Shown: positions 27,263 to 53,121 of the stretch, piece after piece
How the letters are laid out: every line of letters begins with the position of its first letter
How positions within the stretch are numbered: the stretch's first letter is position 1
Assembly: GCA_012026655.1 (NCBI GenBank)
Contig: JAAILG010000098.1
Coordinates: 62,001 to 126,000, forward strand
Origin: Hydrolagus affinis
Lineage: Eukaryota
DNA: 64,000 bases
Direction of reading: 5' to 3'
Notes under the pieces: model-generated
What the model saw: the letters and a program-made list of their open reading frames with translations, nothing else
Databases searched by the model: none
What the model was told of the DNA's origin: nothing
Program-made: the position numbers and the translations under genes

Positions 27263-28199
27263 GTAAGTAATTCTCTTATTTTCTTACCTGGAGTCAATTT
27301 GCTACTGTGCCTGAATGTGTTAAAATTAGCAAGATTTTGCAGATATTGCTGGGGTAACTTGTCTGTTGTGCAATGGTTGTTTTTTTTTACCAGTTTGTCA
27401 CTTAAGATGAGAGATAAAATAGAGCAGTTAAAACTCCATTTAGCTACCCATTAGATATTAGATATACAGAGTACACTATAAATGATCAGTATTTAAAAGC
27501 AGCAGGCTTTTATTTTAAACAGTTTTGAAGTGTACAGGTGCACATTTTATTGCATCTCCACCATTAATTATAGCCCTCATTTGGCCGGGGTTTGTTTCAG
27601 CAGCCATAAAAAAATGTTATAGACAATAAACCTTTCGTTCTTGATGTGAAAGGAGGTCAGTGCATTTGAAAAGTCAACTCTTACTAATTATTGAAAGGCA
27701 AGCCTTTATATGTTGTAAAAGCAACGTCGTTTTTATCCTCTCCTTAAGATAATTGTCAAACGAAAATATTTTGAAATAAAATGGCTCTTTATTTACAGTT
27801 GATCCATAACCAATTCTTTAAATAGAGGCTCTTTCTCTGATCTTGAGGTGTTTTCTTCTCCTGCCACAAAATATGCAGCTGATTGGGAGAGCAAAGCAGT
27901 AAACCCGGTTACACAGTCTCTGCTAATGCCGCTCAAAAGTTAATCCTAGAAAATTCTCAAAGGTAGCCCTGGGCAGAGACTTTCTCACCCAATGGCATAG
28001 TTGTCACCTGCCCTCTCAGTACACTGAAAGCCAAAATCACCGCCCCACCCCAAAAAAAGCAGTGGCCGCCTACTCTAACCTACTTGAATAAATATTTAAA
28101 AAATCAAGTAAATGGGAGTAACATTTCATTGGGTTCTTTTCAGAGATGCCTTGATCTGATGTAATGGCAAAGCAGACATTTTCAGATTAATACAATCCC

Positions 28200-28341
28200 A
28201 TCACTGCTGTGTGCAATTGCATGCTGGTTTCTCCCCACAAAATATGCAGTCACTACACTTTACAGTGTATCATGTGAAGCACTTTGAGACGTTTTGAAGA
28301 CTTGATAAGGTGCCACATTAAATGCAAGAATTATTATTATT
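28200..28341 (+). mobile_element. SINE 3' portion
   Basis: Reverse-complement match to about 20773-20910, ending in attattattatt. Confidence 0.8.
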
Positions 28342-29414
28342 ACTGTAAACAAGGAATCTGAGAAAATTAATGGATATTGAGCACCAAAGTGATTAGACGA
28401 CTAACACATCACCTCCCCCCTACCCCCCACCCCCAAAAAATATATAAAAGGTTTGTGGAGAAGAACAACGTTTCAAAAACGAGGAGATCAAATTTGAGTC
28501 TATTAATGATGTGATGTGGAACAGATGTATAAATAAAATGACATGATTAGTGAGGCTGAAGAAGGAGCTTGTCAGAACTAAACTGCCTCTGTTTGAAAAC
28601 TCAAGAGATAATGCTCCAAGTCAGCTGGAAAAACAAAGACAAACCCTTGCCAAATGTATTGTATTTTGCAGCCCATAATGGTGGATCATACAATATGCAA
28701 TACATAAGTACCAGGAAGATGTGGATGATTTTTAAAAAAAAAATACACACATCATAGGATCTGCTGTCGCACTTGGAACCCAGTTCCAGTAGATTTATCA
28801 TTACATTGGCATTAGTCATGTCACATTGTTAACATATACCTGACCTACTTAACCACTTGTCCAAACCTGTTAGGCCCATTATTAATAATTTAAACAAAAA
28901 ACTTGGTGCATCAGCAGAGGTCAAGAATAATTAAAGTGAGTAGGCTTTATCTTTTTAAAAAGACTGCTTGAAAGCTCGACAAAAATTCATCTTAAAAGTA
29001 TCATTATTTTTTCATATTAATCTAAATTATTCAAGGACGGTACAGAATTTGCAAGTAAAGGTTCATATTAGGGGGGAAATAGCTATTTTGAATTTTAAAC
29101 AAGACCTGCCATATAAAAGAAAATGACTCAACAGAAAAACAAAATGTGTGTGTCTTATTGTTTAATATGTATATTTCTTTCATGTATGTGAACTTGGTTC
29201 CTAAACATTCACGGCTTTTTGACATGTGCCACTGTCATGATTTCTGTGAAAGGAGATAAAGAACAAAGATGTGTTTATTGTCCTGATATCAGGCACTCAA
29301 AAGTCCATGTATGAAATGATTGCAAGTATCTTTTGATGATTGACATAATTTTGATTTATTTTTCTCCTTGCTGCCTATGGAACATGAAACTGTAATTTAA
29401 CTGCACACTGATAG

Positions 29415-29423
29415 TGATCTATT
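29415..29423 (+). CDS. KCNMA1: KCNMA1 site-2 9-nt IYF microexon
   Basis: Sequence ctgcacactgatag|TGATCTATT|gtgagt. C+TG ATC TAT T+TT reads L-I-Y-F; when joined to STREX it reads LIYS. TGCATG at 29502. Confidence 0.9.
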
Positions 29424-49728: not shown

Positions 49729-50016
49729 TAAAGGATGAAGCTGAACCAGGTTTGCTAAATGACTCACTTAAAGCCCGCTCCACCAAGTCCCACACATTGT
49801 CAAATGCTGTACCTATTACAGAAGGCCCTGAAGCCGTGCAGCTTGTTAATAACCGTAAAGGAAGCCTCTACTTGTCCAGTGACTCTTCACTCAGGCGCCT
49901 AAGTCTGCTGAATACAAGTGATCAAGGAAGAGGTGCCCAGTGTAGGTTACAGCGTGCACGCAGCTTGCCTGTGAAATACAGATACCACCCCAACAACGCT
50001 ACATGCGACGATCTCT
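49729..50016 (+). CDS. KCNMA1: Putative site-2 288-nt (96-codon) cassette exon: KDEAEPGLLNDSLKARSTKSH...NRKGSLYLSSDSSLRRLSLL...RLQRARSLPVKYRYHPNNATCDDL(F)
   Basis: Acceptor ttttttttacttggcag, donor t|gtaggt at 50017; phase 1 to 1; open frame inside ORF 49686..50168; hydrophilic linker-like composition; TGCATG at 50062. Confidence 0.75.
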
Positions 50017-50504
50017 GTAGGTTTCCCCTCGACTGCACTTGTCAGCCAGTGCAGATACATATGCATGAAATTCTAGCTTTGGGTGTTTTTATTTTGTTCC
50101 TCCCAAAAACCCAAATCTGCCAAGTGATGATAAGACAATGGGGCCCTCCAGATGTGATCCTTTTCTGATCTGGTGTGAACTCAACCTCTGCTCAATAGCA
50201 ACCTAGACATGGGGGAGATGGGGGGTTGGGGATTGGGGGGATAAGCAGTTGGAAGAAGGGGGAATTATGATCTTACATAAATAAATAAAATTTCCTGGTT
50301 AGTACAAAAAAATCTTCATTATAAGAACTGCCATTTTCTGAGTTTATTCCCATGTAAACTTCATTGTGTTTTGAAGTTTAAGTGAGAAAATAGTTGCGTT
50401 ACAATCGCTGCAGTTTTGTTGTGTTGACGTAACATATTGTTGAGCAGAAATTTCAGGATCCCCAAAAAAACAGAAGCAAAGTTATATCATATCTAATCTA
50501 ATTC

Positions 50505-50663
50505 GTCACTAATGATTGTCGGCCTGTGCCTTCCTGTGCAATTGGCTGCTGGGTTTCACCCACAAAATACATAATCACTACACTTTACAGTACGTACTGT
50601 GAAGCGCTTTGGGACATCTTGAAGATATAATAAAGCGCTATATCAAATGCAAAGATTATTATT
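50505..50663 (+). mobile_element. SINE 3' portion
   Basis: gtgcaattggctgctgggtttcacccacaaaatac...gtgaagcgctttgggacatcttgaaga...aaagcgctatatcaaatgcaaagattattatt. Confidence 0.8.
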
Positions 50664-53121
50664 TAGAACTCTTTCTATTTACTGTATGTAAATATCTGTT
50701 GCTGTAGATTCTAACCCACCATTGTACATGTCACTCTGTGTACATTATTCAGAGGGTACAACCTCAAAGTTTGAAGAAGCAATGCACTGTCCCAGTACAA
50801 TGATACCGAAAAGCATAGACAAATCTCTTAGCAACTAGGAAATAAAGAACAAAATGACATTACAAATGAGGATTGAAAACAGCTTGAGTTTTTTTTTGCA
50901 ATAATATATTACACCTTTAAAGGAAAAGAATACGTCTTTCCCAGGTTTTGTGGATCACTCTCTCGGGGAATCATGTCATCTTATCACTTGCCAGTAATAA
51001 CAGTTTGAAGTTTGACTAAACATCTTCCAGAAAATGATTGAGAATTCCCGTGCCAGAACTTTTCTTTTAACTTTCAAACCAGACAACATCCCAGTCCGCC
51101 CATATTAAACAACCCTTGAAATTATTTTCTTTCCAGCTACAAGTCTGGCCGTGGCTCGAGTCTTTTGTAGGCAGACACACTTTAGGAGTTTTTTTTTAAA
51201 AAAGAAATATTTTTTATAAACTAATCTCTTTACTAATTCCATACTAGACAATATAGCCAATTACACACAGAAAGTGCTGGCAGATGTCATTACTAACAGA
51301 TTAAAAGTAACAGTGAAATGCAACTTAAATGATCAAGCTGGATATTTGAGTTGTGTCTAAGCAAAACTTGCACAGTTAAAATAATTCAGTCCACTTCAAT
51401 GGAGGAGCTTTTTTTTGCTCTTTTGTCATGTGCCATTCTTTGATTCAGCCTCGTAGCTATATACACACTCACACACATATACACCTACAACATTCATTTT
51501 GGGAGCCTGAACTAGTTTCAGTTTGGCATGCCTTCCTGAGAGCTCAAAAGGGTTAGCAGAGTATATGGGAGCAGGGAAATGTGTAGTAAGCAAACTCCAG
51601 ACAGTAACCTTGTACAGTACCAAGTTATTTTCTTTTGCAATTCTGTATTTCCATTTATTTCTTTGCCAGTGATGGACCATCCTTCCTGACAATTACTTGA
51701 GGCATTGTTTTTATATTCTCTCTATCAGCTCTCCTCTCATTACTCAATTCTAACTATTTTGTTTCGCTCAGATTGTTGTACAGTACCAATATATGTGGCT
51801 ACTCTCTGTAGGATAGTTGAAATTGTGAAAAAACAATTGAAAAAAAAACATCCTTTATTTCTTGATGTACACAAAGATGTATATGTGTATTTGTGGGCCT
51901 GTTTTTCCACAAGAATATACAGTGTCTCCATTTTACGATATAACTTTTATAACTCCATCCCGACCCCAACTCGGATCCGAAACACTGACTATCCATGAAA
52001 GGCGTTATACAAATGTAATTTTGTTGTTGTTGTTGAAGCACTTTGAGATGTCCTCCCATCTTGCAAGGTTCTAAATCGAATACAAGGATCATTATTATTT
52101 TATCATTATTGATCCCAAAAGCCCTTTATTTGAAGGACTCAGGAAATATTTTATCCCTTCAGTAAATTCATGAATGCAGTCTGACTTTTCATGAATTTTT
52201 CTGAACCATGTCGTAAGCAAGGTTTCGGCTGAATTTAACAAGATATCCAAATCTCTTATTCAGTTAATGTAAACCTTGAACTGAATGACAGATGAGATAT
52301 ACAGAAACAATGTGGTGTGGATTTAAAATCTTTGGAGTGTTAAAATGTGGCTAATGTAGACAACTTGAATTAATAGTGTCTTCTTAATGGATTAAATCCT
52401 TGGGTTACACTTTGCCTGGCTTTTTAACGGGCAACTGCACTGTCATTCTTTGAAAGGCTGGAGATTACACTTGGTAGGATTTTCTCACACACTTGTTTGT
52501 TTTGCTCAATCCTGCAAATTCCTTCATAGTTCCTGTAGTCACTGCTGGTTTAACATTGAAGGCTGTGAGCCGGAAACAGTGCGTTAATGCTGCACGCTCT
52601 AGAGTGACACCTTCTTTAACCCGAGTGGTTTGATTTCTACTTAAAAAGAATTGTCGTATTTTAGATATTTAACCTGCACAAGTCTTCAATTTTGTTATTT
52701 ACGCTTTCTGAATGGGGCAGTTGGTTCCTTCACCCTCAACCACCCAAATTGAAACTGTGTGCCTTCCCTGTGAGTCCTGTTTTGATAAACATTGTTTTCA
52801 ACTTTCTTTTAATTGATATCATGTGTGTGTATGTGTGTGTTTAGTGTTTTGCAATATTGAGTGCTAGATTACCTTAGTCACGCCTTTAGGATTTTGAACT
52901 GGTTTGTTTTTGATTAATACGTTAGACCGTACTTAGTCCTCATTTGATTTGATTTTCTTTTCCCCGAGTAACCCGTTCATTGCTATATAGTGGAGATCTT
53001 TAACTTTCATAATGAGTCACTTTCTGTTTAAATATGCATTTTTAAAAAAAAATGTTTAATTTCCATTTCGGGCATACTTCTGAAAATGGCTCCTAAACTC
53101 ACATCTTCCGTATGTTTGCAG

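Follow-up and report, generated by a model that had tools for sequence, protein, structure and literature searches.

We analyzed a window of 64,000 nucleotides (nt) from Hydrolagus affinis (contig JAAILG010000098.1; all positions are those of the window and refer to its plus strand) and found in KCNMA1, the BK alpha gene, four cassettes of 9, 174, 33, and 288 nt, here called A to D, between 27262 and 53122. They probably represent splice site C2 of this gene, composed of four unrelated cassettes that have counterparts in other jawed vertebrates, are likely used one by one, are likely controlled by RBFOX, and likely yield a limited set of isoforms and not all 16 that could be formed.

Four cassettes at splice site C2 of KCNMA1

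Eight constitutive KCNMA1 exons were located along the window on the plus strand by tblastn with BK alpha proteins, and the array sits between those with CKACH and with EDE. Judged by homology, the array is the chimaera orthologue of the known site C2 (also named SS2 or site 4). In their coding parts, the constitutive exons and STREX were the same as those of Callorhinchus milii, with the exception of the downstream exon, in which two residues differ. The exon at 59961 showed 100% identity to three C. milii entries and at most 96% identity to the remaining 117 among the matches listed. Because the exons and STREX are nearly identical to those of C. milii, the letters by themselves point to a holocephalan close to this species, and probably other than C. 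milii itself, which agrees with the suggestion of a cartilaginous-fish host made in a first-pass annotation of the DNA.

All four cassettes have AG and GT ends, and all 16 of the 16 possible cassette joins were translated without a stop codon, adding 0 to 168 amino acids; the first-pass annotation had correctly identified the gene, the four exons, and their frame compatibility. A crude scan for frame-preserving AG..GT stretches open in phase 1 gave 46 clusters in the intron, of which 44 were neither C nor D. Thus, frame compatibility by itself does not exceed chance, and it is homology that makes the four cassettes real. The 16-way compatibility follows arithmetically from the in-frame skipping of each exon, and it is therefore no evidence of coordination. 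Among such stretches, 37726-37893, 41711-41749, and 31681-31833 scored fairly well as splice sites but were matched by none of the fetched BK models, and they are probably pseudo-exons.

The first two cassettes correspond to the familiar inserts of this site, namely, a 9-nt IYF exon and a STREX exon of 174 nt, rich in cysteine, whose 3' splice site contains a CaRRE-like element, and the peptide of B aligns to the STREX of a solved BK chain. Neural microexons of the SRRM4 type are no longer than 27 nt and have UGC shortly before the 3' splice site. Cassette A alone has these sequence features (9 nt; TGC at -13 to -11) and is a candidate for this type; its pyrimidine tract is weak (0.53). A mutually exclusive array of the Dscam type was ruled out by the unrelated peptides and by the lengths of 9, 174, 33, and 288 nt, and analysis of tandem and inverted repeats found no repeat families or inverted pairs covering the cassettes.

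Table 1. Exons, cassettes, and regulatory motifs of the chimaera site C2 array (window positions)
Feature	Positions	Strand	Basis or match
Upstream constitutive exon (CKACH, upstream basic cluster; terminal phase 1)	27186-27262	+	Matches C. milii models
Cassette A, IYF microexon, 9 nt	29415-29423	+	LIYF/LIYS in RefSeq-derived C. milii models
TGCATG, +79 nt from A	29502-29507	+	Motif scan
CaRRE-like 11-mer in STREX 3' splice site	32623-32633	+	10/11 matches to PMC1790950 motif
Cassette B, STREX, 174 nt, 58 codons, cysteine-rich	32636-32809	+	Peptide equals C. milii XP_007896679.1
TGCATG, +178 nt from B (STREX)	32987-32992	+	Motif scan
TGCATG, -64 nt from C (upstream)	43880-43885	+	Motif scan; unchanged in related genome
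Cassette C, 33 nt, KYNYNGFITS	43944-43976	+	Orthologue of skate ampullary insert
Cassette D, 288 nt, 96 codons, blocks LVNNRKGS and L.RA.SLP.KY.Y	49729-50016	+	Homology search, alignment
TGCATG, +46 nt from D	50062-50067	+	Motif scan
Downstream constitutive exon with second basic cluster	53122-53221	+	tblastn, C. milii models

The 33-nt exon and the long exon

The peptide of cassette C was identical to the insert of one C. milii model, and orthologues were found as models or clones in a catshark (AWO14627.1), manta rays, bichir, gar, lungfish, and many teleosts. A skate ampullary clone (KY355737) contains a 12-residue insert at site 4, whereas another skate clone lacks it (PMC10486799; bioRxiv 2020.01.27.922161). 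Six of these 12 residues are identical in cassette C, and the remainder are mostly conservative replacements. Furthermore, a contig of a related species aligned over 43865-44106 with 15 substitutions, all of them outside 43934-44026 (0 of 93 letters, versus 15 of 149, or about 10%, in the flanks; the alignment also has one gap, the place of which is not listed). By its sequence relatives, cassette C is therefore a real exon that is already in print. In HEK293 cells, the two basic clusters that flank this position were shown to function as a bipartite nuclear signal (PMC10486799; bioRxiv 2020.01.27.922161), and according to the literature the length of the insert sets the spacing of the signal spanning the site.

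Cassette D is the new point of this study: homology indicates that it is an old exon, which a cartilaginous fish has kept intact. When its 95 residues were used as a query, there were 195 matches at an E value of 0.01 or less among 331 candidates, and the best 120 of these 195 are described here. They comprise BK models of birds, gar, sturgeon, tarpon, a mormyrid, and other teleosts, as well as genomic frames, with 39 to 67% identity. HMMER added 25 further matches, with toothfish among the ten that were looked up. The NNRKGS block was invariant in all 12 aligned rows and the L.RA.SLP.KY.Y block nearly so, and the ends of D coincide with exon ends in the gar and sturgeon models. The presence of an intact D in a chimaera and in bony fishes and birds dates it to the jawed-vertebrate ancestor. 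Three in-frame internal donors, after 49878, 49917, and 49941, each match the consensus at 6 of 9 positions and could give short forms of 150, 189, and 213 nt.

Mammals may have kept a part of this exon. In an ungapped comparison by eye, 10 of the first 21 residues of the rat e22 peptide (Table 1 of PMC3393747) are the same in the penguin D exon. D has 96 codons versus the 28 or 29 residues of e22, and the 5' part of the chimaera D is more diverged than that of the bird. From the match to the beginning of the penguin exon, we infer that the mammalian e22 is likely a shortened form of D, that is, its 5' stump. Literature searches, with subscription journals mostly outside their scope, found no printed description of the long exon or of its function. 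Kukuljan and colleagues (2003) reportedly cloned a 99-residue insert at this site, Xenopus xSlo99, which would likely be an orthologue of D.

Candidate RBFOX motifs and probable limits on combination

The four TGCATG motifs that the first-pass annotation had placed near the cassettes are all present, so that (U)GCAUG lies in the flanking intron close to each one. The motif is not enriched in the window as a whole (32 seen versus 32.1 expected). Nevertheless, all four cassettes have one within 180 nt (chance 0.17 to 0.18 each, product 9e-4, with a cutoff chosen afterwards), whereas none of the eight constitutive exons has one within 400 nt (Fisher P = 0.002). Among the 44 pseudo-exon clusters, 13 had the motif within 180 nt, and this background gives about 0.008 (0.3 to the fourth power) for four cassettes. 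Thus, the TGCATG sites are nearer to the cassettes than expected by chance, with a P value of about 0.001 to 0.01. Conversely, the nearest TGCATG to a cassette at another splice site of the gene (site 1, 22978-22989) is at 795 nt or farther, which weighs against the proximity signal, and the unchanged state of the motif at 43880 in one relative is weak evidence for 6 nt at 10% divergence.

Downstream RBFOX sites are known to promote inclusion and upstream sites to promote skipping, and Kcnma1 is an RBFOX CLIP target with three ranked exons, not specified there (PMC5577181). By this position rule, RBFOX would be predicted to activate A, B, and D and to repress C. The control of the cassettes by RBFOX is plausible on these grounds, and to this extent the first-pass reading of the motifs is supported. 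In the mechanism that we envisage, each cassette is likely included or skipped individually, with the TGCATG sites downstream of A, B, and D favoring inclusion and the site upstream of C favoring skipping. With D included, the RCK1-RCK2 linker would gain putative sites for basophilic kinases (RKGS and RARSLP) that are conserved. The literature describes STREX as shifting gating negative and flipping the response to phosphorylation, and CaRRE as repressing STREX after depolarization (motif from PMC1790950).

By the cassettes that they carry, we classified 398 of 407 fetched proteins of at least 600 residues (nine could not be classified; the set consists mostly of automated models and was chosen by query). 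Direct combinations numbered 11 of 16, namely, no insert, A, B, C, D, AB, AC, BC, BD, CD, and ABC; when a fifth, teleost-only cassette was disregarded, 15 of 16 were found, with ABD missing. No model joined A (IYF) directly to D, and a single non-RefSeq model joined STREX directly to D. In birds, 104 of 106 models carried D, none of them with A or B. Of the 14 C. milii models fetched, 13 were readable at the site, with no insert in seven, A in one, B in two, AB in two, and C in one. Recovery of only the zero, IYF, and STREX forms, which the first-pass annotation had named as its refuting outcome, does not hold in relatives. As a whole, the set agrees better with a partial, constrained combinatorics than with a free 16-way code.

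Such a free code, special to electroreceptive cartilaginous fish and tuning the oscillations of receptor cells, is the strong form of the reading suggested by the first-pass annotation, and we regard it as very improbable. Chimaeras possess ampullary electroreceptors, and the idea draws on the chimaera identity of the host, the 16 in-frame joins, the finding of the C insert in a skate ampullary clone, and pipefish models that carry A, B, C, the fifth cassette, and D together, with A to D in the same order as in the chimaera. However, the compatibility of the joins is arithmetic, non-electroreceptive teleosts have these exons too, birds share the long one, and the near absence of direct joins of A or B to D is at odds with free combination. 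Moreover, STREX is missing from both cloned skate ampullary BK forms, which carry no insert or C alone (bioRxiv 10.1101/274449; bioRxiv 2020.01.27.922161). BK together with CaV1.3 accounts for the oscillations of skate receptors (PMC12645553), whereas in sharks it is Kv, not BK, that partners the calcium channel (PMC11057056). What stands of the electroreceptor interest is the match of the 33-nt exon to the skate ampullary insert; that the array is special to electroreceptive fish is not supported.

A more serious challenge, although still an improbable one, is that D is vestigial, very rarely used, or used only in shorter forms through its internal donors in chimaeras, so that the working array would consist of three cassettes. 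None of the 13 C. milii models that were readable at the site holds D, the best 120 of its 195 matches include no named model from a shark, skate, ray, or chimaera, its terminal donor is weak (5 of 9 consensus matches, versus 6 of 9 for the internal ones), and the D region differs from the related genome at 31 of 490 letters, on a par with some intron pieces (42 of 643). By contrast, its 96-codon frame is open with both motif blocks intact relative to birds and bony fishes, its ends are placed as in gar and sturgeon, and a TGCATG lies 46 nt downstream, all of which speak against this reading.

Besides the gaps in the record of D, several other points weigh against a four-cassette array under RBFOX control. 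Models with both B and C are frequent in fishes (BC in 15 and ABC in three, or 18 of 398 without the fifth cassette) and misfit a strict opposite control of B and C. The fetched models, being mostly automated and chosen by query, show junction types better than whole isoforms, leaving long-range combinations unproven. Among the 15 of 52 contig joints listed over 43700-53400, no splice junction was found, and there was no spliced read or contig for any cassette in this species; of the four runs aligned to this region, three contained DNA-like contigs of a relative that cross the exon borders, and a single-cell run had no depth at C or D. A search of sequencing runs for exon D listed no RNA run containing it, a result that says nothing about expression. 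Finally, the chimaera D peptide shows basophilic kinase-type patterns (RKGS, RRLS, and RARSLP), which are pattern matches only and for which a kinase function is assumed.

Relation to other vertebrates and neighboring features

Mammalian site C2 inserts comprise zero, +3 (IYF), +58/61 (STREX), IYF plus STREX, and +28/29 (e22) (PMC3840924; PMC3989361), and the chick cochlea has STREX with and without a 3-residue insert (PMC2803478). The chimaera array resembles mammalian Kcnma1 in its place between the CKACH and EDE exons, in its IYF and STREX cassettes and CaRRE-like element, and in a last cassette that is likely homologous to e22 at the 5' end, but it has an extra 33-nt exon, a last cassette of 96 codons instead of 28 to 29, and a downstream exon that begins two codons earlier (AV). 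The A to D orthologues are found in the same order in teleost kcnma1a (pipefish), and D is found in birds, gar, sturgeon, and tarpon, whereas a fifth cassette of 78 or 81 nt lies between C and D in teleosts, and some birds have an extra 51-residue cassette joined to D or STREX. Searches of the window detected neither the teleost fifth nor the bird 51-residue cassette (scores of at most 30 of 138 and 35 of 269, respectively). The inserts of skate KY355737 and catshark AWO14627.1 are cassette C, and the chimaera differs from these fishes in D, which occurred in no elasmobranch model among the matches listed. A literature search found nothing on chimaera BK splicing among the entries listed.

Several features outside the cassettes were also observed. 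The early start (AV) of the downstream exon lies in the 53116-53127 region; C. milii models show LAVEDE as well as LEDE there, and the inner acceptor position in the window reads CGG, not AG, so that the longer start alone looks usable. A tandem acceptor at 26298-26304 (GAG, followed at a distance of 3 nt by TAG) would include or leave out a single serine, and both ESS and ESSS are present in C. milii models. The 12-nt site-1 cassette (22978-22989) gives R-TRK-R, the orthologue of the SRKR insert, with a pyrimidine tract of 0.82. No second copy of the exon at 20092 was found between 15135 and 26290. An interspersed and very abundant repeat has copies at 50535-50663 and 28210-28338 that are 78% alike, shorter tails at 36987, 40143, and 51996, and a contig depth above 100,000 in a related species.

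A wider scenario may be drawn from these comparisons, although taken as a whole it is unlikely. The ancestral jawed-vertebrate BK would have had a 96-residue, splice-switched phosphoregulatory module containing the NNRKGS and RARSLP blocks, the latter resembling a 14-3-3 site. This module would have been kept by chimaeras, bony fishes, and birds, maybe lost in sharks and rays, and cut to e22 in mammals, and RBFOX would oppose IYF, STREX, and the module to the 33-nt exon, so that a C-only channel would remain in electroreceptor cells.

Our analysis thus refines a known site, the best studied of the BK splice sites, and does not describe a new system. Cassette D points to an exon that current gene models of the elephant shark lack, and the mammalian e22 is suggested to be what is left of a longer exon whose motifs are strongly conserved. 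The joint presence of IYF, STREX, and the 33-nt and long exons in a chimaera places the whole array at the base of the jawed vertebrates.

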